Shown here: positions 3,020-63,582 of the stretch, piece by piece | How the letters are laid out: the number at the start of each line of letters is the position of its first letter | Numbering within the stretch: position 1 is the stretch's first letter | Translations under genes and position numbers: made by a program | The notes under the pieces: model-generated | Databases searched by the model: none | The model's input: only the letters and a program-made list of their open reading frames with translations | Told to the model about the DNA's origin: nothing | Assembly: GCA_013151955.1 (NCBI GenBank) | Contig: JAADHH010000095.1 | Span: 3,195 to 67,194, forward strand | Source: Chloroflexota bacterium | Lineage (GTDB): Bacteria; Chloroflexota; Anaerolineae; Ardenticatenales; JAADHH01 | DNA length: 64,000 nt | Reading direction: 5' to 3'

Positions 3020-5383
3020 ATGAAAACGATGACCTTATTCCCGAAACCTTTGCTCTTGCAACGTGTGCTCCGCTCCTTGCTGGTGCGGCGCGTCCGTTCC
3101 CTGTTGACGCTGGCCGGCATCATTGTGGGGGTAGCCGGCGTGACTGCGGTTGTTTTCACGGCCCGCAACCTGGCCGATGCCCAGGCAGATGTTTACGACT
3201 CCGCTTCTCAGGCCGATATAACGTTTTGGGTATGGGATGCCAGTCCCTCTTTGCCGCGCACACTCACCAACCGCCCCGACGTGACCGCTGTAGAACTGCG
3301 CTGGACCGATTACGTGAAGGCCAACCTGGGCGAGAGTCGCCAGACGCTGCACCTGATTGGGCTGTCCAATCCGGCAGAGACTACCGTGAACCGTCTCGAC
3401 TTGTTGGCCGGACGCTATCCCGGCCCGGACCAGGCGTTGCTGGAGATTTCCTCACGCGATCTGGCCCCCCTCGAAATTGGAGACTCGATTACCTACCTCG
3501 ATTCCGCGGGTCGCCAACGCCGCTTGACCATCAGCGGTCTCGCACGCAGCCCGGCGCTCCTTTCCGCGCAACTGACCGGCCTGGCCACGGCCTTCGTTCC
3601 GGCGCGTACCGTGCGAGACTTGTTGGGCGTCTCCGGCGCGAACCAATTGCTCATCCGCGTTGCCGACCCCCGCCACAGCGGTGAAGCGGCGCGCGACATT
3701 GCCCGCTCGCTTGACAACCAGCACCTGCAACATGACGAACCACAGATACGCGACCCGAACAATTTTCCCGGCAAACGGGAATTGGACGCCCTATTTCGTT
3801 TGCTGGCCCTTTTTGCAGCGCTGGGGCTACTGCTGTGTGGGGTACTGGTCGGCAATACGCTCTCCATGCTGGTTGCCGAAGAGCAAAACGAGATCGGCAC
3901 ACTGAAGGCATTGGGCGCAGACCGCACGTACATCCTGCAAAGCTATCTGTTGGCCGCCCTTGTTTACGGCTTCCTGGGCACGCCGGTGGGCATCGCGTTG
4001 GGTGCCCTGTTGGGTTGGCGGATCATGTCCTTTTTGGGCGGGCTGACCAGCCTGTCTGCCCCGTTTGCCCTTGCACCGGAGGGCATTGCTGTGGGCGTCG
4101 CCGTGGGGCTGGGCGTGACCTTTTCGGCCGGTCTGGTTCCCGCCTATCATGCAGCCATGCTTCCCGTATCCGAGGCCTTGCAACCGCATGGTCTGGTCTC
4201 TCGCTATGCCCGTACCCGCCTGGAGCGCGTGTTGCAACACATGCGCAGACTGCCGCCCCTGACGGCCATGTCGCTGCGCAACCTGAGCCGCCGCCGCACC
4301 CGCAACGGCCTGACCGTGTTGGTCATTGCCCTGGCTGTGGCTACCCTGTTGGCTGCCCAGACCACGGAAGCCTCTGTGAACGGCGCCATCGACGAGGTCT
4401 TCCGTACCTATCGCGCGCAAGCGTGGGTCTTCTTCCGCCGGCCGGTCAGCCCCGACCTGAAACAGAGTTTGCAGGCCATCCCCGGCGTTGGCCAGGCCGA
4501 ACCGTGGACGTTGACCGACGCCTGGGTTGGCCATGCCCCGGTGCGCCTCTGGGGCCTGCCGGCCGATACCACACTATACCGGCCCAACCTGATTGCCGGC
4601 CGCTGGTACCGCCCGGATGAGCCGCGAGGAGCGGTCGTATCCGCCGATCTAGCGAAGCGGCAAGGCATAAACAGGGGGCAAAGCATCCAGGTGGACCTGG
4701 GCGAAGGCCGCCAAACTTCGTTGCACGTGGTTGGTATCGCCATAGACAACACAATCTTCTTGGGCAGCCAGGTGCAAAGCAAGGTGTTTGCTCCCCGCCG
4801 GACCGTCGCGCGTCTGCACGGGCTGCAGGGGCAGGCCAGCCTGTTTGCGCTAGGCCTGCGAGAGGGATCGCCGGCAGCGGTACAGTCGATTCTGGCGCAG
4901 ATCGAGCAGCGTTATGCCGCGTGGTTGCCCGCCGGCGAATCGGCCCAAGCCGAGGTAGACGCCGCCCGCAAACAATCGCAGACGTTGGGGCTGGCCCTGC
5001 GCAGCATGGTCGCACTCGTGGCCATCATTGGCGCGATCGGTCTGACAAACACGTTGACCATCGGCGTGCTGGAGCGCCGGCGCGAAATCGGCGTACTGCG
5101 AGCCCTCGGCGCCACCGACCGTCAGATTGCCCAGACTTTCATCGTCGAGGGGGTCGCACTGGGCCTCATGGGGTGGGTGCTGGGAGCAGTCATCGGCTAC
5201 GGTTTGGGCCAGGGGCTTGTGTACACCTTGGGCAGTGTGCTGTTTCGCATTCGCTACCTTTTTCCGCCTGGGGTGCTGCTCCTCAGCCTGGCCTTTGCAC
5301 TGGTCATCGCGGTTGCTGCCAGCCTGGGGCCGGCCTGGGCCGCCGCTCGCCTGCCCACCATCGAGACCTTGCGATACGAGTAG
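3020..5383 (+). CDS. ABC-transporter permease with two FtsX domains (MacB/YbbP-like); no ATPase partner nearby
   Basis: 800-aa ORF from GTG 2981; a likelier start is ATG 3020 (MKTMTLFPKPLLLQRVLRSLLVRRVRSLLTLAGIIVGVAGV). Two TM1 / large loop / 3-TM units. C-terminal 'IGVLRALGATDRQI' FtsX signature. Confidence 0.85.
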   Translation: MKTMTLFPKPLLLQRVLRSLLVRRVRSLLTLAGIIVGVAGVTAVVFTARNLADAQADVYDSASQADITFWVWDASPSLPRTLTNRPDVTAVELRWTDYVKANLGESRQTLHLIGLSNPAETTVNRLDLLAGRYPGPDQALLEISSRDLAPLEIGDSITYLDSAGRQRRLTISGLARSPALLSAQLTGLATAFVPARTVRDLLGVSGANQLLIRVADPRHSGEAARDIARSLDNQHLQHDEPQIRDPNNFPGKRELDALFRLLALFAALGLLLCGVLVGNTLSMLVAEEQNEIGTLKALGADRTYILQSYLLAALVYGFLGTPVGIALGALLGWRIMSFLGGLTSLSAPFALAPEGIAVGVAVGLGVTFSAGLVPAYHAAMLPVSEALQPHGLVSRYARTRLERVLQHMRRLPPLTAMSLRNLSRRRTRNGLTVLVIALAVATLLAAQTTEASVNGAIDEVFRTYRAQAWVFFRRPVSPDLKQSLQAIPGVGQAEPWTLTDAWVGHAPVRLWGLPADTTLYRPNLIAGRWYRPDEPRGAVVSADLAKRQGINRGQSIQVDLGEGRQTSLHVVGIAIDNTIFLGSQVQSKVFAPRRTVARLHGLQGQASLFALGLREGSPAAVQSILAQIEQRYAAWLPAGESAQAEVDAARKQSQTLGLALRSMVALVAIIGAIGLTNTLTIGVLERRREIGVLRALGATDRQIAQTFIVEGVALGLMGWVLGAVIGYGLGQGLVYTLGSVLFRIRYLFPPGVLLLSLAFALVIAVAASLGPAWAAARLPTIETLRYE

Positions 5384-10235: not shown

Positions 10236-10285
10236 TAGGATGGTGGTACCAATTCCTGGCAGGAGAAAGCCCCAAATTCTGTAAT

Positions 10286-10422
10286 GTGTCAGGTGTCAGG
10301 TGTCAGGTAAAACGTGATGCGTGATGCGTAAGACGCAATACGTTTCACGTCTTCACGTTTCACGTCCCGCCATTTTGAAAATAAGTTTAGAAGTTCAACT
10401 TCTCGGAGAAGTTGAACTTCTT
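10286..10422 (-). repeat. Family E composite repeat, copy E2 (inverted relative to E1)
   Basis: The reverse complement reads CGTGAAA CGTGAAGA CGTGAAA CGTATTG CGTCTTA (CGCATCA)x2 CGTTTTA (CCTGACA)x3. Two AGAAGTTSAACTTCT palindromes at 10389-10421. Confidence 0.9.
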
Positions 10423-17050: not shown

Positions 17051-17206
17051 CCTAGCAGGCTGTCGGAGAGGTCTGTTTTCTTCTCTATTAGGTCACAGAT
17101 TCTCACAGAGAAACACAGATGTTCAGGCCAAATCATCGGAAAATCTGTGTTTATCCTGCAAATCTGTGTCCCATGATTCTTTCTTTTCTCCGACAAGCTG
17201 CTAGTT
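17051..17206 (+). repeat. Family C repeat, copy C1 (subtype a, with terminal inverted repeats)
   Basis: CTAGCAGGCTGTCGGAGAG (left) is inverted relative to CTCCGACAAGCTGCTAG (right). The core 'CACAGATTCTCACAGA...AAAATCTGTGTTTATCCTGCAAATCTGTGTCCCATGATTCTTTC' is shared with 31681-31757. The left end forms a hairpin plus T-rich run just after the rplY stop. Confidence 0.8.
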
Positions 17207-22634: not shown

Positions 22635-22765
22635 GTATCTTCTCAATAATTCGGGGTAGGGGCACGGCCTTGCGCCTGCCCCGTAGGGCGACCGCTGCCC
22701 CGTAGGGTGACCGGCTGCCCCATAGGGCGACCGCAAGGGTACGCCCCTACTTTTTGAGAAGATAC
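22635..22765 (+). mobile_element. MITE, shared-TIR superfamily, core type B (copy B1)
   Basis: TIRs GTATCTTCTCAATAATTCGGGG / rc GTATCTTCTCAAAAAGTAGGGG. Flanking 8-mers AGAATATG (22627-34) and AGAATACG (22766-73) match at 7 of 8 positions, consistent with a TSD. Core holds 3 copies of a ~19-bp unit CTGCCCCGTAGGGCGACCG. Confidence 0.85.
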
Positions 22766-30503: not shown

Positions 30504-31397
30504 TCAATTCCTTCCGCGTATGACCCGCTCGAAAATCGCAAAGTTCAGGGCCTTGTCATTCACGTAACCGGCCGCTTCCAGAATCTCCGGCCAGGGCGAC
30601 CCTTTGGGCACAAAGGCCAATACCTCGCGGTCCGGTGTGGCTGTGGCCTTTCGACGCAGGGCCCGCACCAAATCGGCGACGGAATCTTGCGCGCCATCCA
30701 GCAGCCCAACCCACAAGCGGCCCCGTTCCGCCAAGAAATCGTGCGCATCTGGCGTAAGGGCGACCGCAGCAAGGGACCGGTCCGCACGGCGATAGCCGAC
30801 CACTTCACCGGCGCGCAAGTGTTCGGCCAGGCGAGCAGGCGTCAACGCCGGCCACCTCCAACCGACGGCGCACAGCCGGTGACCGGCCGCGAACACCTCG
30901 GACCGTTCCAGCAGGGCCATCACCGCCGGCCCCTCCTCCGGCCCCAACGTTTGCGGGGCCGGGGCCACGATCGATTCGTCCGCCCTCCCCCTGAAACAAA
31001 GCGGGGTTGCTACGCGACGAAAGTTCGACCTATCCATAATGTGATGTACGGCTGCGTTGTGCACACCGGTGGCCAGGCGCAGCACCCGCGGCCTCAGCCG
31101 GGCCAGGTACTGGCGCTGGCCGGCCATGTAGGCATTGGCCACACCCGACTTGCGCACCTCTGGGGCCACCCGCAACCCCTCCAGCCAAATCTCGCCCGGG
31201 CCCAGGGCGGTCACCTTGCCGATGGCGACCGGCTTGCCGTGCAGTTCACCTACCAAAAAAGCGCCGGTCACATCAGCAAGCCATTCGTCCCAAACATCGG
31301 CGATGTAGTCGCCAAACTCGTCCCAGGTATGCTCACAAAAGGCCAGCACCGCTTCTTTGTCTTCCGGTCGAGCCGGTCTTACGACAAATCCCTCCAT
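30504..31397 (-). CDS. GNAT-family N-acetyltransferase with C-terminal extension
   Basis: ORF 30504..31559. The upstream part runs through MITE D1, so the start was set at ATG 31397 (MEGFVVRPARPEDKEAVLAF...; SD AAGGAG upstream), with ATG 31424 as the alternative. Acetyl-CoA motif 'RVAPEVRKSGVANAYM'. Confidence 0.8.
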   Translation of the reverse strand: MEGFVVRPARPEDKEAVLAFCEHTWDEFGDYIADVWDEWLADVTGAFLVGELHGKPVAIGKVTALGPGEIWLEGLRVAPEVRKSGVANAYMAGQRQYLARLRPRVLRLATGVHNAAVHHIMDRSNFRRVATPLCFRGRADESIVAPAPQTLGPEEGPAVMALLERSEVFAAGHRLCAVGWRWPALTPARLAEHLRAGEVVGYRRADRSLAAVALTPDAHDFLAERGRLWVGLLDGAQDSVADLVRALRRKATATPDREVLAFVPKGSPWPEILEAAGYVNDKALNFAIFERVIRGRN

Positions 31398-31427: not shown

Positions 31428-31518
31428 GTATCTTCTCAATAAAACGGGGTGGGACGACCCAGAAGTTCGACTTTTGGTAAAAGTCGAACTTCTTCGCCCC
31501 GGAATATTGAGAAGATAC
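31428..31518 (+). mobile_element. MITE, shared-TIR superfamily, core type D (copy D1)
   Basis: GTATCTTCTCAATAAAACGGGG ... CCCCGGAATATTGAGAAGATAC. Core is the palindrome AGAAGTTCGACTTTTGGTAAAAGTCGAACTTCT. No TSD is visible. Confidence 0.8.
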
Positions 31519-31757
31519 GTCAACATCGACAAAAAGTTGTCTATGTTTCTGTAGGACACAGATTCTCACAGAAAAACAGTATCTTCTCAAAAAGTAGGGG
31601 CGATCCCTTGCGGTCGCCCTACGGGGCAGGCGCAAGGCCATGCCCCTACCACACGGATTATTGAGAGGATACGAAAAACAGAGATAAAACATTCAGAAAA
31701 ATCTGTGTTTATCCTGCAAATCTGTGCCCCATGATTCTTTCTCCGACAAGCTGCTAG
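31519..31757 (+). repeat. Family C repeat, copy C2 (mosaic), interrupted by MITE B2
   Basis: GTCAACATCGACAAAAAGTTGTCTATGTTTCTGTAGGACACAGATTCTCACAGAAAAACA [insert] GAGATAAAACATTCAGAAAAATCTGTGT...CTCCGACAAGCTGCTAG. The uninterrupted form is at 63421-63480. Confidence 0.85.
31579..31672 (-). mobile_element. MITE, shared-TIR superfamily, core type B (copy B2), nested inside repeat C2
   Basis: GTATCTTCTCAA...TTGAGAGGATAC flanked by a perfect 8-bp direct repeat GAAAAACA (31571-78 and 31673-80). The copies at 63421-63480 and 48001-48040 carry GAAAAACA only once. Confidence 0.9.
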
Positions 31758-32725
31758 TATGCGGCCAACCGCCGCGCGGCCTCAGCGATCTTTGCCGCGT
31801 CCGGACGGAAAAAATCCTCCAGCGGCGGGCTATAGGGCACAGGCGTATCGGGTGCCGTGACCCGCAATACCGGCCCGTCCAGATAGTCGAAAGCCCGTTC
31901 GGCGATGAGGGCGGCCAGTTCCGCACCAAAACCGGCCGTGCGGCTCGCCTCGTGGGTGATGACCACCTTGCCCGTCTTGCGTGCGCTGGCCAACACAGTT
32001 TCTTCGTCCAGGGGAACCAGCGTGCGCAAGTCCAGCACCTCGGCGTCAATCCCTTCTTGCTCCAGCACCTCGGCAGCGGCCAGCGCCTCGTGGACCATCG
32101 CCCCGTACGCCAACAGGCTCAAATCGCTCCCTTTGCGTCGCACTGCGGCCTGGCCAAAGGGCACAACATAGTCGTCGGTCGGGATGTCCTCCTTGATCCG
32201 CCGGTAGAGGTATTTGTTTTCCAGGAAGATCACCGGGTTGGGGTCGCGGATGGCCGATTTCAGCAGTCCTTTGGCGTCGTAGGCCGTGGCCGGCACGACG
32301 ACCCGCAGGCCGGGCGCATGGCAAAACCACGCCTCCGGGTTCTGCGAGTGGAACGGGCCGGCGCGCACACCACCACCGGAAGGCGCACGAATGACAATCG
32401 GCACCGCAGCGCGCCAGCGATAGAAGCTGGTGCCGGCCACGTTGACGATTTGGTCGAAAGCGCAGGCCATGAAATCGGCAAATTGAATCTCGGCCACCGG
32501 GCGCATACCCATCATGGCCGACCCGATAGCCGAGCCAACGATGGCAATCTCGCACATCGGCGTATCGATCACACGGCGCGGGCCGAATGTCTCCAGCAAT
32601 CCTTGCGTCACCTTGAAGGCACCGCCGTACACGCCGATGTCTTCACCGAGCAAAAAGACCCGTTCATCCCGGTGCATTTCCTCTTCCAGGGCTTGATGGA
32701 TGGCTTCCAGGTATGTCACTTCCAT
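31754..32725 (-). CDS. 2-oxoacid dehydrogenase E1 component, beta subunit (transketolase-like)
   Basis: ORF 31754..32833 trimmed to ATG 32725 (SD GGAGGTG 6 nt upstream): MEVTYLEAIHQALEEEMHRDERVFLLGEDIGVYGGAFKVTQGL... The upstream 36 codons lie in a tandem repeat. Confidence 0.92.
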   Translation of the reverse strand: MEVTYLEAIHQALEEEMHRDERVFLLGEDIGVYGGAFKVTQGLLETFGPRRVIDTPMCEIAIVGSAIGSAMMGMRPVAEIQFADFMACAFDQIVNVAGTSFYRWRAAVPIVIRAPSGGGVRAGPFHSQNPEAWFCHAPGLRVVVPATAYDAKGLLKSAIRDPNPVIFLENKYLYRRIKEDIPTDDYVVPFGQAAVRRKGSDLSLLAYGAMVHEALAAAEVLEQEGIDAEVLDLRTLVPLDEETVLASARKTGKVVITHEASRTAGFGAELAALIAERAFDYLDGPVLRVTAPDTPVPYSPPLEDFFRPDAAKIAEAARRLAAY

Positions 32726-32744
32726 CGTTGTCACCTCCAAATTT

Positions 32745-32852
32745 TCTCCGGTATGGGCGCCCCTTGCGGTCGCCTTGGGCCAGGGCGAGCCTTGGGCCAG
32801 GGCGAACCTTGGGCAAGGGCGAACCTTGGGCAAGGGCGAACCTTGCCCCTAC
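32745..32852 (-). repeat. TIR-less type-B core containing a 4.5x tandem 17-bp repeat
   Basis: Units CCTTGGGCCAGGGCGAG (32773-89), CCTTGGGCCAGGGCGAA (32790-806), and CCTTGGGCAAGGGCGAA twice (32807-40). Flanked by CCCTTGCGGTCGCC and CCCCTAC as in MITE B cores. Fills the E1-alpha/E1-beta gap. Confidence 0.85.
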
Positions 32853-33817
32853 ACGTCGCAGAACACGCCTTCGAGGGCCTCGCGCCCTTCGGGGAAGGGG
32901 CTCTTTTCGGCAAAAGTCGTGGCGTCATCCACGGCAGCGGCGACGCGCGACGCGATCTCTTCCGCCAGCTCATCGGAGAGCAGGCCCTGCTGGCGTAGCG
33001 CCGCCTCGAAGCGGCGGATGGGGTCTTTTTCGCGCCACGCTGCGAGCAGTTCCTGTGGCACGTAGAAGGCATCGTCGTGTGCCGCATGGCCACGCATACG
33101 CATGGTCTTGGCCTCGATGAGTGTGGGGCCTTCGCCGCGTCGCGCCCGTTCCACCGCTTTGTGCACCACGTCGTAAACGGCCAGCACATCGTTGCCATCC
33201 ACCACAACGCCGGGGATGCCGTAACCGGCGGCGCGATCGGCCAGATTCTCGATGGCAAACTGCTTCTTCGTCGGCGTGGAATAGGCAAACTGGTTGTTCT
33301 CGCAAATGAAGACGGCCGGCGCTTTGAGTACCGAAGCGAGATTCAGCGTTTCGTGCGCCGCGCCTTCACTGCTGGAGCCATCGCCAAAGAAGGCCAGCGC
33401 CACACGCGGTTCCTGGCGCACCCAGAAAGCCATGGCCGCGCCCAGCGTCAACGGGAGTTGGTCGGGCAGGGGGCTGACGTAGCCGAGAATGCCCAGGTTC
33501 AGGTCGCCCATGCCGTGCGTGTTTCCGTCGCGGCCTCGACTGAGTGCCGTGCGCCGGCCCAAGAATTGGGCGAGTACCTGCCGGGGCGTGATGCCGCGCA
33601 CCAAGTAGGCCCCCAGATCACGGTGGAGCGGCGCCACCACATCATCCGGCCCCAGCGCCCACGCCGCGCCGACGGCTATCGCCTCGTGCCCCAGGCTGGA
33701 AAAAGAGACCCCCTCGATCTTCCCCTGCTTGAAGAGCAAGTCGATGCGGTCGTCCACAGCACGGGTCAGCAGCATATACTCGTAAATTTGCAGCAAATCC
33801 TCATTCGGTAAGGTCAT
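32849..33817 (-). CDS. 2-oxoacid dehydrogenase E1 component, alpha subunit (TPP-binding)
   Basis: ORF 32849..33838 (GTG) trimmed to ATG 33817 (SD GGAGGGGAGGG 8 nt upstream): MTLPNEDLLQIYEYMLLTRAVDDR... TPP motif 'GDGSSSEGAAHETLNLA'. Confidence 0.92.
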   Translation of the reverse strand: MTLPNEDLLQIYEYMLLTRAVDDRIDLLFKQGKIEGVSFSSLGHEAIAVGAAWALGPDDVVAPLHRDLGAYLVRGITPRQVLAQFLGRRTALSRGRDGNTHGMGDLNLGILGYVSPLPDQLPLTLGAAMAFWVRQEPRVALAFFGDGSSSEGAAHETLNLASVLKAPAVFICENNQFAYSTPTKKQFAIENLADRAAGYGIPGVVVDGNDVLAVYDVVHKAVERARRGEGPTLIEAKTMRMRGHAAHDDAFYVPQELLAAWREKDPIRRFEAALRQQGLLSDELAEEIASRVAAAVDDATTFAEKSPFPEGREALEGVFCDV

Positions 33818-36310: not shown

Positions 36311-36520
36311 CGCGATTTTCATCCGTGGTGGCGTGCAACCGCTCAGGGTGACTGTTATGAAAATAACGTGTCAGGTAAAACGTAATGCGTGATGCGTGAT
36401 GCGTAAGACGCAATACGCATTACGTTTCACGTCTTCACGTTTCACGCATTACGTTTCACGCCTTCACGTTTCACGTCCTACGATTTTCATCCTTGGTGGC
36501 GGGCAACCGCCCATGGGCAC
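36311..36520 (-). repeat. Family E composite repeat, copy E3 (longest array, about 15 units)
   Basis: 36369-36478 is the inverted heptamer array with the GAAA block duplicated. Bracketed by a ~38-bp direct repeat CGATTTTCATCCNTGGTGGCGNGCAACCGC (36314-50 and 36481-520). Confidence 0.9.
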
Positions 36521-39073: not shown

Positions 39074-39262
39074 GTAGCCATGCGCGGCTGCGCGCCACCA
39101 ACGATGAAAATGGCGGGACGTGAAACGTGAAGGCGTGAAACGTAATGCGTATTGCGTCTTACGCATCACGCATCACGCATTACGTTTTACCTGACACCTG
39201 ACACGTTATTTTCATAACAGTCGTCAGAGCGTGTTGCGTAGTGCGTATTGCGTGCCGCTCGC
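39074..39262 (+). repeat. Family E composite repeat, copy E4
   Basis: CGTGAAA CGTGAAGG CGTGAAA CGTAATG CGTATTG CGTCTTA (CGCATCA)x2 CGCATTA CGTTTTA (CCTGACA)x2, followed by extra NTTGCGT units at 39231-39255. Confidence 0.9.
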
Positions 39263-40526: not shown

Positions 40527-40655
40527 GTATCTTCTCGATAATTCGGGGTGAGCAGAACGTCATGCCCCCCTAACCCCCCAACTTTGGGGGGAATGTGCTC
40601 CCCCAGAATTGGGGGCCGGGGGGCGTTCGCGTTCCCCAAGTTATCGAGAAGATAC
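40527..40655 (+). mobile_element. MITE, shared-TIR superfamily, core type A (copy A2) with perfect 8-bp TSD
   Basis: GTATCTTCTCGATAATTCGGGG ... CCCCAAGTTATCGAGAAGATAC. Flanked by GATTGAAG at 40519-26 and 40656-63. Inserted between the CoA-transferase stop and the thiolase RBS. Confidence 0.92.
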
Positions 40656-47890: not shown

Positions 47891-48085
47891 CTACGCATTG
47901 TCCGAGACTTCGCTCAGAAAATGTGGCCCCTGACGGGGCAGTTGACAAAAGGACAGGGGACACAGATTTACACAGGCTTCGACACAGGCTTCGCACACAG
48001 ATTTTTCTGAATGTTTTATCTCTGTTTTTCTGTGTCCTACAGAAACATCGACAACTTTTTGTCGACCTTGACGCCCTAAGCGCCT
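47891..48085 (-). repeat. Family C repeat, copy C3 (subtype b)
   Basis: The reverse complement is about 90% identical by eye to 63391-63582. It fills the cpaE-cpaF intercistronic gap and abuts the cpaE stop codon. Confidence 0.88.
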
Positions 48086-49376
48086 ACCGCTTCCGCCACC
48101 GTCTAAATAGTCCTCCGGGAGTTGCTGCCTGCTTTTTGTGCATTGTTTCCGTCGGACCCGGCGGGGGCAGTTGTTCGACGATTTGCTGGGCCAGGTGTAA
48201 CAGGTTCTGCCCAACAGCAGAGTTCGGCTGCCCCTGTACGACAGGCAGACCCTGGTTGACGGCTTTGGTCGTTGCCGCATCATCACGTATCACGTCGGTA
48301 AGGACAGGATGTTTCACACTGGCTTCTATGTCGCGTACGCGAATCCCTCCTCGGGGGTCGTGCTTGTTGAGCACGAGCAAAATCTTTTCCGGCTCATAGG
48401 TCAAAGCCTCGGTAACCTCGAAGAAGGTCTTGGTATTTTTTATGGCCGTTATTTCGGTCGTCGTCAACAGAATGATTCGGTCGCTAAGATCAAATAGAGT
48501 CAATGTTGGTTCTTGGAAAGAAGTCCACGTATCAATTACGATGTAATCAAAGATCAGTCGCAGCTTCTCCAGGATTATGGTCAGGTGCTCCGTCGTGACG
48601 AGTTCGGCCATCTCGGGCTTGGGTGGTGAGAGCAGGGCCTTTACGCCGGAGGAGTGCGTGATCAGCAAACCGGCCAGGAATTCTTCGTCCAGGTCGTCAA
48701 TTTGCTCGACGGCGTCAACTATGCTCCTTTGGGAAGAAAGGTTCAGGAGTACACCCACGTCGCCAAATTGCAGACTGCCATCCACAATCGCTACTTTGGT
48801 CTTCGTCACTTCTCGAATGGCGATTGCCAGATTGGTGACCACCGTGCTGGTTCCGACCCCCCCCTTTGCGCCATAAACGGTAATCACTCTCCCTTTCGGC
48901 GATGGCGGGACGGGCTGGGCGACCGGTACCGGAGCCAACGCCTCTCCTTGGGGAGGCGGGGGGGTGGCCGGGCGACGGCGCTGGCCCAAGTCGTAAACGC
49001 GCCGTATGCTGGTGACCAATTCTTCTGCGGTGAAGGGTTTGATCAGGAATTCGCGTGCGCCGGCCAACATGGAACGTCGCAGGTAGTCGGCCTCTCCCTG
49101 TACCGACATCATGATCACCTGGGTGTTGGGAGCGCTTTCCGATATTTTCTCGCCGGCCGTCACCCCGTCCATGCCCGGCATGTTGATGTCCATCAAGACG
49201 ACATCTGGCTGCAACTCCATGACCATCTCGACACCTTCCGCACCGTCCGATGCCGAGCCAACAACCTGAATGTCCTTTTCGAAGTATAGGAGCTTCTTTA
49301 GGTTCTCACGAGTTTCCGGTATATCATCCACAACCAGGACGTGGATCATTTTGTTAGGGTCTGCGTTTTCAGACAT
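48084..49376 (-). CDS. cpaE: Response-regulator receiver domain fused to CpaE/TadZ-type MinD/ParA ATPase
   Basis: 430 aa. REC 'IHVLVVDDIPETR...DVVLMDINMPGMDG...MMSVQG...FLIKPF' has all phospho-acceptor residues. Then 'VITVYGAKGGVGTSTVVTNLA', a deviant Walker A. Confidence 0.9.
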   Translation of the reverse strand: MSENADPNKMIHVLVVDDIPETRENLKKLLYFEKDIQVVGSASDGAEGVEMVMELQPDVVLMDINMPGMDGVTAGEKISESAPNTQVIMMSVQGEADYLRRSMLAGAREFLIKPFTAEELVTSIRRVYDLGQRRRPATPPPPQGEALAPVPVAQPVPPSPKGRVITVYGAKGGVGTSTVVTNLAIAIREVTKTKVAIVDGSLQFGDVGVLLNLSSQRSIVDAVEQIDDLDEEFLAGLLITHSSGVKALLSPPKPEMAELVTTEHLTIILEKLRLIFDYIVIDTWTSFQEPTLTLFDLSDRIILLTTTEITAIKNTKTFFEVTEALTYEPEKILLVLNKHDPRGGIRVRDIEASVKHPVLTDVIRDDAATTKAVNQGLPVVQGQPNSAVGQNLLHLAQQIVEQLPPPGPTETMHKKQAATPGGLFRRWRKR

Positions 49377-57560: not shown

Positions 57561-57717
57561 GGGTCCTGCCCTCCACGTCTACGCAAGCATGTAGAATCCG
57601 AAGATGGTCTTGAAATAGTCTTTGCCTTCTACTATTATATCCTAACGCTACGTGCCAAGCAATAGGATTGTAGTACCGTTACACAGCCAACTTCTGCCAT
57701 TGTGACAAGCAAATGAG

Positions 57718-57842
57718 GTATCTTCTCAATAATTCGGGGTGAGTGGACCGTCGTGCCTCCCTACCCCCCAAAAACTTTTGGGGGAGTGTGCTCCCCCAGA
57801 ATTGGGGCCCCGGGGGCGTTTCCCAGGTTATTGAGAAGATAC
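57718..57842 (+). mobile_element. MITE, shared-TIR superfamily, core type A (copy A3)
   Basis: GTATCTTCTCAATAATTCGGGG ... CCCAGGTTATTGAGAAGATAC. Flanks CAAATGAG / CAAATGGA match at 6 of 8. Confidence 0.85.
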
Positions 57843-57898
57843 CAAATGGACGAATCGGCGAATGTCCCCTGGCCAAAGACCACGCCGGTCTGCCAAAA

Positions 57899-59885: not shown

Positions 59886-59945
59886 AGAAGTTTTCTCCCA
59901 GAAGTTCAACTTCTCCCAGAAGTTGAACTTCTGAACTTCTGGGGG
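59886..59945. repeat. Cluster of AGAAGTTSAACTTCT palindromes
   Basis: AGAAGTTTTCTCCCAGAAGTTCAACTTCTCCCAGAAGTTGAACTTCTGAACTTCTGG. The same palindrome is found at 2926-2940, 10389-10421 and within MITE D1. Confidence 0.85.
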
Positions 59946-61408: not shown

Positions 61409-61700
61409 GCTCCATTCGGCCTTTTCGGCGAATCGCAGAGAGAGATTCGTTCCGCTTTCCGCCCCTGGGTGATTGTCCTGCAAAGTAGGCGTACACAATG
61501 GAGGTCAACATTTATTCCATCCGCTAAATTATACCAAATTTCTTGCCAAAAGTAAATAGGCGCTTAGGGCGTCAACATCGACGAAATTTTGTCACTGCTT
61601 TGAAAACCAGATGTCAGTTGTCAGTCGTCAGTAGCCAGATGTCAGATGTCATATCATGTAGCCCTTGAATCCCCATTCCAGGGCGGGTTCGTCCCTCTGG

Positions 61701-61767
61701 CCCCCCTACCCCCCCAATCCTGGGGGGAACCATCCGACTCCCCCCAGAATTGGGGGGCCGGGGGGGC
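61701..61767 (+). repeat. TIR-less fragment of the type-A MITE core
   Basis: CCCCCCTACCCCCCCAATCCTGGGGGGAACCATCCGACTCCCCCCAGAATTGGGGGGCCGGGGGGGC parallels the A1-A3 cores. A family C left-end fragment sits at 61556-61595. Confidence 0.7.
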
Positions 61768-61803
61768 TTCCGCCGCTCCACGCTCCACGCCCCTCCTCGC
61801 AGG

Positions 61804-63309: not shown

Positions 63310-63390
63310 GTATCTTCTCAATATTTTGGGGGAATGTGCTCCCCCCAGAATTGAGGCCCGGGGGGCGCTCCCCAAGTTATTGAGATGATA
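63310..63390 (+). mobile_element. MITE, shared-TIR superfamily, truncated type-A core (copy A5)
   Basis: GTATCTTCTCAATATTTTGGGGGAATGTGCTCCCCCCAGAATTGAGGCCCGGGGGGCGCTCCCCAAGTTATTGAGATGATAG. The right TIR is degenerate, and there is no TSD. Confidence 0.75.
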
Positions 63391-63582
63391 GGCGCTTAGG
63401 GCGTCAAGATCGACAACTTTTTGTCGATGTTTCTGTAGGACACAGATTCTCACAGAAAAACAGAGATAAAACTTTCAGAAAAATCTGTGTGCGAAGCCCG
63501 TGTAAATCTGTGTCCCCTGTCCTTTTGTCAACTGCCCCGTCAGGGGCCACATTTTCTGAGCGAAGTCTCGGACAATGCGTAG
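63391..63582 (+). repeat. Family C repeat, copy C4 (subtype b, uninterrupted reference copy)
   Basis: GGCGCTTAGGGCGTCAAGATCGACAACTTTTTGTCGATGTTTCTGTAGGACACAGATTCTCACAGAAAAACAGAGATAAAAC...GAGCGAAGTCTCGGACAATGCGTAG. Confidence 0.88.

Follow-up and report, generated by a model that had tools for sequence, protein, structure and literature searches.

Nested insertion of a miniature inverted-repeat element, with an 8-bp target duplication, in an intergenic spacer of a Chloroflexota bacterium

We analyzed a 64,000-nucleotide stretch of DNA from a Chloroflexota bacterium (GenBank assembly GCA_013151955.1, contig JAADHH010000095.1, positions 3,195 to 67,194 of the forward strand), called the window below and numbered from its first letter. 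Between a 2-oxoacid dehydrogenase E1 beta subunit gene (E1-beta) and a GNAT N-acetyltransferase gene, the window carries a stack of small repeats: a pair of transposable elements of the miniature inverted-repeat type (MITEs) from one family, D, which we call D1 and D2, and a copy of a second repeat family, C, into which D2 is inserted. The features of this locus are as follows.

30504 to 31397, minus strand: GNAT N-acetyltransferase gene, downstream of the stack (297 amino acids, identical to NCBI NOZ06198.1)
31428 to 31518, no strand assigned: D1, a 91-bp D-family MITE, no flanking duplication
31519 to 31570, plus strand: left fragment of family C (remnant of module F, and core), its left end cut off by a D1-associated deletion
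31571 to 31578, no strand assigned: left target-site duplication GAAAAACA (8 bp)
31579 to 31672, no strand assigned: D2, a 94-bp D-family MITE nested in family C
31673 to 31680, no strand assigned: right target-site duplication GAAAAACA (8 bp)
31681 to 31753, plus strand: right fragment of family C, with the inverted end TCTCCGACAAGCTG next to the host CTAG
31754 to 32833, minus strand: 2-oxoacid dehydrogenase E1 beta subunit gene, upstream of the stack, stop codon TAG at 31754-31756

From the E1-beta stop to the GNAT start the spacer measures 356 bp, and D1 lies 30 bp upstream of the GNAT ATG. The true start of E1-beta is probably downstream of 32833, which is the start of the maximal open reading frame (ORF). 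An earlier note on this stretch, made from the sequence alone, had described a 330-bp gap holding three stacked elements. The stack is present, but it ends at 31753, and the CTAG at 31754-31757 belongs to the host.

D2 is bounded by the inverted ends GTATCTTCTCAA and TTGAGAGGATAC, complementary at 11 of 12 positions, and its interior consists of two GC-rich hairpins of a GTAG type; its hairpin fold reaches -27 kcal/mol (z -6.5). It interrupts a sequence that is whole in three other C copies of the window.

63392 to 63582, plus strand: intact C copy, a paralogous empty site, with GAAAAACA once (63455-63462)
47891 to 48086, minus strand: intact C copy with a single octamer, its end falling on the TAG stop of a response-regulator gene
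17052 to 17204, plus strand: short complete C variant, CTAG/CAGGCTGTCGGAGA ... TCTCCGACAAGCTG/CTAG (a slash marks the junction), with GAGAAACA once

The last of these is a fourth copy, additional to those listed in the earlier note. Aligned with the three empty copies, the filled copy differs by exactly 94 + 8 = 102 bp. In the first of them, positions 63441-63472 read CACAGATTCTCACAGAAAAACAGAGATAAAAC, the octamer being single and uninterrupted, and the right C fragment at the filled site is 98% identical to 17140-17184. The positions given earlier for D2, its inverted ends and the flanking GAAAAACA pair all agreed with the sequence, as did the statement that the octamer is single in the two copies then cited (63392-63582; 47891-48086). 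Whether GAAAAACA is also duplicated in uninterrupted C copies was checked, and it is not: the octamer occurs once in each of the three window copies and once in the C copy of a related genome, L122.

This related genome is one of several in which the same spacer could be compared: L119 and L120 (both GCA_964455755.1), L121 (JGI 3300013233), L122 (JGI 3300023444) and L123 (SRR9849951). L119, L120 and L121 have a GNAT protein 82-84% identical to that of the window and the same gene order, but a spacer of only 53 or 26 bp, from which the C, D2 and D1 stack is absent; in the alignment with these three loci, the stack as a whole falls exactly between the stop-codon CTAG and GAAATGGG. In the closest relatives, L122 and L123 (GNAT 87% identical at the amino acid level, flanking DNA 84-86%), a C copy oriented as in the window lies upstream of GNAT, and this copy is uninterrupted. 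In L122 it reads ...TTTTATCTGTGTTTTTCTGTGAGAATC..., with a single TGTTTTTC and without D2. The variants CATAGAC and GATGTTGAC are common to the L122 copy and the 31519 copy and set both apart from the window paralogs, and the flanks of D2 are identical to the L122 ortholog over ~60 bp on one side, these locus-specific variants included, and ~28 bp on the other. The scan of metagenomes with the GNAT protein confirmed no relatives, and that with the C core GTAGGACACAGATTCTCACAG gave no matches; outside the window, C was traced to L122 and L123.

The empty-site versus filled-site reading of the earlier note thus holds for paralogous sites in the window and for orthologous sites in L122/L123, the orthologous empty site being the stronger evidence of the two. 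By these alignments, D2 is a clean insertion that took place after this species and the L122 species split. To call the locus direct evidence of transposition, as had been done, is fair, but an insertion that is recent or ongoing is not supported; the comparison dates it only to after the split from a species that is ~85% identical in DNA.

An alternative history is that the nested arrangement formed at another C copy and was then copied here by gene conversion or recombination between paralogs. C copies are indeed mosaics with clear segment exchange: in its distal half the 31519 copy belongs to the 17052 type, while its ortholog in L122 belongs to the 63392 type, and the L122 copy (1-195) is 94% identical to window positions 63388-63582 but only ~84% to the orthologous 31519 copy. 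However, the flanks of D2 match the ortholog, so that a conversion tract would need to have spanned almost exactly D2 and the duplicated octamer and no more, no other filled C copy was seen in the window, and conversion would merely relocate the transposition event to another copy. We regard this history as very unlikely. That C copies are closer between species than the flanking genes (84-86%) may be due to recent activity, to transfer or to concerted evolution.

Rather than a uniform repeat, family C is in alignments a mosaic of modules, and it is itself mobile. Longer forms carry an added module, TAGGCGCTTAGGGCGTCAA.ATCGAC..., which also stands alone at 61556-61600; there module F (TAGGCGCTTAGGGCGTCAACATCGACGAAATTTTGTC) is followed by unrelated GTCAG-rich repeats, which shows that the modules are separable. 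The inverted ends of the family are CAGSCTGTCGGAGA and TCTCCGRCAGCCTG. Its distal junction in the window is ACTAG/CAGCTTGTCGGAGA, its proximal junction in L122 is CCGGCAGCCTG/CTGG/GTC, and the empty sites read CTAG/GTC and TTAG/GTC (L119 and L121), and these junctions together point to an insertion of C at CTAG with duplication of CTAG. This target looks IS5-like, and the TAG stops at 31754-56 and 48084-86 each coincide with the end of a C copy. C, with its inverted ends, is hence a mobile element too, and the description of the locus as a MITE nested in a MITE is accurate.

The third element of the stack, D1, has perfect inverted ends (12/12 bp) around an interior palindrome, AGAAGTTCGACTTTTGGTAAAAGTCGAACTTCT, and folds into a single long hairpin (-33.3 kcal/mol, z -11.7). 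A 91-bp element at another locus, L046, is 85% identical to D1 and has a perfect 8-bp duplication. The earlier note had D1, with the same termini as D2, abutting the left end of the C copy. Its presence and position were confirmed, but this is not a simple abutment, as D1 replaces 72 bp that are kept in L122. These 72 bp (GCCCTAAGCGCCTAT...GGTTAGACG) correspond to the rest of C module F, the other inverted end of C and the spacer.

Two side observations concern this gene neighborhood. A promoter-like match, of consensus type only, spans the left junction of D2 (31562-31590, minus strand, towards the GNAT gene), with a -35 TTGAGA in the D2 inverted end, a spacing of 17 nt and a TG-extended -10 GAGAAT in family C. 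On the other side of E1-beta, a 17-bp unit, CCTTGGGCCAGGGCGAA, is present in ~5 tandem copies (32773-32857) in the E1-alpha/E1-beta spacer, which measures 76 bp in relatives (L119 2899-2976).

To evaluate the D family as a whole, we counted its 12-mer end with up to 2 mismatches and found 17 occurrences in the window, where 2.2 are expected from shuffled sequences and none of 100 shuffles reached 17. These make up seven paired copies of 82-131 bp, all of them intergenic. Besides D1 and D2 they are the following.

40527 to 40655, no strand assigned: D copy, 129 bp, flanks GATTGAAG / GATTGAAG, 8/8 identical
22635 to 22765, no strand assigned: D copy, 131 bp, flanks AGAATATG / AGAATACG, 7/8
2570 to 2694, no strand assigned: D copy, 125 bp, flanks CAAATGTG / CAAATGCA, 6/8
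57718 to 57842, no strand assigned: D copy, 125 bp, flanks CAAATGAG / CAAATGGA, 6/8
63310 to 63391, no strand assigned: D copy, 82 bp, right tip GATAG instead of GATAC, no own duplication

Three types of interior occur among the seven copies, which have only the ends in common: the GTAG-type hairpins in D2 and the copy at 22635, the latter inverted relative to D2 and carrying an internal duplication; the AGAAGTTCGAC palindrome in D1; and a CCCCCAGAATTGGGGG-type module in the copies at 2570, 40527, 57718 and 63310. Long-hairpin folds were obtained for all four copies tested (D1, D2, 22635 and 40527; z -5 to -12). The copies in 2562-2700 and 57710-57848 belong to one subfamily and both have CAAATG in their flanks, with mismatches at the same two positions, which a shared target preference, among other things, could explain.

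The D copy at 63310-63391 and the intact C copy at 63392-63582 lie jointly inside a perfect 8-bp repeat, ATACTTTC (63302-09 and 63583-90). This suggests that C landed later, in the right tip of a pre-existing D, so that the order of nesting would be the reverse of that at 31579. We also considered that the D and C unit 63310-63582 had moved as a composite by means of the far end of C, and rejected it, since by eye this far end agrees with that of D at just 3 of 12 positions. A further repeat family, with the motifs GTGTCAGGT, ACGTGATGCGT and CGTTTCACGT, is found in at least four intergenic regions (10282-10376, 36350-36487, 2800-2931 and 39090-39253). The Rfam scan of the whole window returned no family at gathering thresholds.

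Searching species-representative public genomes with the query GTATCTTCTCAATAWNNNGGGG gave at least 118 loci in at least ~74 assemblies. The host assemblies among the matches listed are almost all metagenome-assembled genomes (MAGs) of Chloroflexota (Anaerolineae, Caldilineales, Ardenticatenales, Chloroflexus, Thermoflexus and Dehalococcoidia), a few being labelled Acidobacteriota, Nitrospirota or Desulfobacterota. Short elements were defined by pairing plus and minus ends 50-320 bp apart, and 87 of them, 59-306 bp long and with length modes of 91-92 and 110-112 bp, are among these matches. Their flanking 8-bp repeats are perfect in 53 of the 87 and identical at 7 of 8 positions in another 14, while other registers are essentially lacking, which means that the 8-bp duplication characterizes the family as such and is no coincidence of a single site. 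The terminal inverted repeats are similar over ~22 bp (consensus GTATCTTCTCAATAAnnCGGGG), and D2 has full-length identity of 78-86% to 91-92 bp elements in at least nine other species-level genomes. The D elements are hence short, non-coding and bounded by inverted ends, with a duplication of fixed length and with empty and filled sites, and their ends match those of a transposase-bearing insertion sequence (IS) elsewhere, as expected of MITEs.

Full-length elements with D ends were found at five loci at least (L010, L085, L089, L105 and L113), where they measure 1730-1853 bp. Perfect 8-bp duplications flank those of L085 (CGTCTACG), L089 (GGGTCGGC) and L105 (GCATTTTC), and are lacking in L010 and L113. 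In the ORF listing, a single long ORF fills the element of L085 (602 amino acids) and L105 (554 amino acids); L010, L089 and L113 gave one transposase match each by tblastn, that of L010 being split in two frames, and the encoded protein lengths reported across the full-length elements are 532-602 amino acids. The Pfam domain DDE_Tnp_IS66 (PF03050) was matched with 53.7 bits in L105 and 50.4 bits in L085, against a gathering score of 23.1, and the NCBIfam IS66 model NF033517 with an E value of 2.4e-34 (119 bits) in L105 and 1e-28 (100 bits) in L089. A CW.H..R motif is visible in the transposase sequence (LALCWIHEGRHY), and the partner transposases have an N-terminal coiled-coil region. They are divergent members of the IS66 family, the L105 protein being 48-59% identical to the other four. 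The autonomous IS that the earlier note had predicted, with termini GTATCTTCTCAATAA..CGGGG and 8-bp duplications, thus exists in other genomes, but none is present in the window.

In L105 (Candidatus Amarolinea aalborgensis, NZ_UETR01000003.1), the element at 3460-5304 lies inside a P-type ATPase gene and interrupts it, and removing the element in silico together with one duplicate restores an ATPase ORF of 890 amino acids with the junction VEEGRGIFGNIKKYL. Homologs of the transposase are also present on Nostoc plasmids, one of them with 49% amino acid identity, the ends GTATCCGCTCAGAAAACCGGGG / GTATCCCCTCAATAGTTCGGGG and a perfect 8-bp duplication, CATCATCG. The end of this Nostoc IS, searched against plasmids, retrieved only the query itself, and hence no link to a cyanobacterial MITE. 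The transposase family comprises at least 7,996 protein clusters (7,996 of 8000 scored candidates pass an E value of 1e-20). Most candidates lie on contigs of 1.8-2.3 kb, as expected because repeats break assemblies.

Taken together, we hold it to be highly probable that D2 is a non-autonomous MITE, mobilized in trans by a single-ORF IS66-family DDE transposase that cleaves its target with an 8-bp stagger. The anatomy of D2, its 8-bp duplication, both kinds of empty site, the 8-bp signature of the family and the ends in common with transposase-bearing elements are observed, whereas the acting enzyme, its action in trans in this genome and the reaction chemistry are what we infer. D2 consists of two ~22-bp inverted repeats around GC-rich hairpins, with no coding capacity. 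A transposase encoded by a full-length element at another place in the genome would bind both ends in trans, excise or copy the element and join it to a target cut with an 8-base stagger, and repair of the gaps would then duplicate the 8 target bases.

Several observations weigh against this reading. D1 has no duplication of its own, which is explained if its arrival came with, or preceded, the 72-bp loss, and the D copy at 63310 has none either. The right end of D2 and its subterminal region are somewhat degenerate, the window copies of one D subfamily are only 82-93% alike, and D activity may be ancient. As for the partner elements, the Pfam match is confined to the C-terminal half of the DDE_Tnp_IS66 domain, and the equivalog cutoff of NF033517, at 180 bits, is above the scores of both L105 and L089. 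A tblastn search of the 64-kb window with the L105 transposase gave only noise and no such gene, and the MITE interiors have nothing in common with those of the full-length elements, so that the two are linked by their ends only.

These last two points are what would favor mobilization of D by a transposase of a family other than the IS66 type, the shared ends being due to capture or convergence. We consider this very unlikely: the shared ends extend over ~22 bp including a conserved CGGGG block, the length of the duplication is identical, and the same ends persist in five full-length elements with transposases of just 48-59% identity, with related ends in the Nostoc homolog. That the ends are kept while the transposases diverge would be expected if they are the binding sites of that enzyme.

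Another possibility is that D elements are palindromes like the repetitive extragenic palindromic sequences (REPs) and their paired forms (REPINs), mobilized by REP-associated tyrosine transposases (RAYTs, of the IS200/IS605 tyrosine/HUH type), with an incidental likeness to IS66-type ends. GTAG-tagged REPs have been reported in Chloroflexi (PMC3733652), and the interior hairpins of D2 resemble them in starting with GTAG, ending with CTAC and being GC-rich. In addition, D interior modules are found free-standing, without D ends, at 10389-10421, 59900-59932 and 61700-61771, including AGAAGTTCAACTTCT palindromes and CCCCCCAGAATTGGGGGGCCGGGGGGG blocks. Unlike REPs, which have neither long inverted ends nor a duplication of fixed length, D elements have both and are linked to a DDE transposase; 67 of the 87 elements listed are flanked by repeats identical at 7 or 8 of 8 positions, and three subfamilies with unrelated interiors share the same 22-bp ends, which are those of transposase-bearing elements with an 8-bp duplication. 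The duplication statistics effectively refute this possibility, which we find hardly credible. Finally, chance or replication slippage without any mobile element, which the A-rich, low-complexity target would favor in the case of slippage, has a negligible probability as the origin of the GAAAAACA pair and the palindrome and is refuted by the duplication counts of the family and the orthologous site without D2, since an 8/8 match at exactly both D2 boundaries has a prior of ~1.5e-5 and D2-like sequences at 78-86% identity in the other genomes are flanked by perfect 8-bp repeats of unrelated sequence.

In this reading, the history of the spacer is reconstructed as follows. E1-beta and GNAT were at first 26-53 bp apart. 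C inserted at the CTAG overlapping the E1-beta stop in a common ancestor with the L122 organism. In the lineage of the window only, D2 then entered C at GAAAAACA, adding 102 bp, and D1 came in on the GNAT-proximal side of C, with the loss of 72 bp. This loss might have occurred by adjacent deletion or by recombination between two D copies, either of which would leave no duplication.

Members of the IS66 family duplicate 8 bp of their target and have GTAA-type ends, and the family includes a single-ORF ISBst12 group (ISfinder/TnPedia). The partner elements resemble this group in their IS66 DDE domain, their 8-bp duplication, their inverted repeats of ~20-25 bp starting with GTA and their one ORF in 1.7-1.85 kb. 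They differ from the family in their ends, GTATCTTCTCAATAA..CGGGG, which begin with GTATC and have only GTA in common with the canonical motif, GTAA(GCG), and from canonical three-gene IS66 elements in leaving no room for tnpA or tnpB. As a single ORF fills elements of 1.82-1.85 kb, they are comparable to the ISBst12-like group and not to canonical IS66.

The Nezha MITE of Nostoc and Anabaena is a close parallel in approach, its mobility being reported from empty and filled orthologous sites in related species (Zhou et al. 2008, as summarized in PMC3184786). As described there, Nezha and ISNpu3 also resemble D and its partners in being small non-coding hairpin elements with inverted ends and flanking direct repeats, on the one hand, and an IS with the same ends found in a different genome, on the other. 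They differ in host phylum, and the comparison with D is one of descriptions and not of sequences. Classical MITEs (Correia/NEMIS, RUP, ERIC and Chunjie) share with D their architecture, intergenic location, strong hairpins, mobilization in trans by the transposase of an IS, and insertions that are nested or clustered. Their parent IS families and duplication lengths are different (Correia duplicates TA), and they are each found in one genus, whereas members of the D family are found in numerous species of one phylum, and outside it. Nested MITEs, target duplications and the comparison of empty and filled sites are already standard. The literature, searched for the D end sequence and for IS66-derived MITEs in Chloroflexi, yielded nothing relevant, and as far as it is searchable, neither the present MITE family nor its connection with a single-ORF IS66-type clade across Chloroflexota appears to have been described.

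Two features of the D family are mildly notable. Complete MITE forms, for example the D2 type with two hairpins in 91 bp and also the D1 type, are found at ~78-86% identity in species-level genomes of several Chloroflexota classes, and possibly in Acidobacteriota MAGs as well, while the partner transposases have diverged to ~50% identity; and the same ends surround at least three unrelated hairpin modules. The consensus of the D2-type hairpin is one long hairpin in which nearly all pairs are invariant, and it gave no covariation signal, which is evidence neither for nor against selection on structure; neither feature is therefore shown to reflect selection. That the family is more than genomic litter, through repeated horizontal spread of a non-coding element over a whole phylum or because IS66-type ends have time and again captured REP-like hairpins that selection keeps, seems to us doubtful. 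If selection does keep D elements, they could serve, for example, as RNA-structure or regulatory modules.

The locus reveals no new mechanism. It is a textbook-quality case of the stepwise growth of an intergenic region by nested elements in an uncultured Chloroflexota lineage, from 26-53 bp, through the arrival of C and then of D2 and D1, to 356 bp, and it ties abundant small repeats of Chloroflexota to a single-ORF IS66-type transposase clade. Such a link is of use for the annotation of MAGs, for explaining assembly breaks and for the use of insertion polymorphisms as strain markers.

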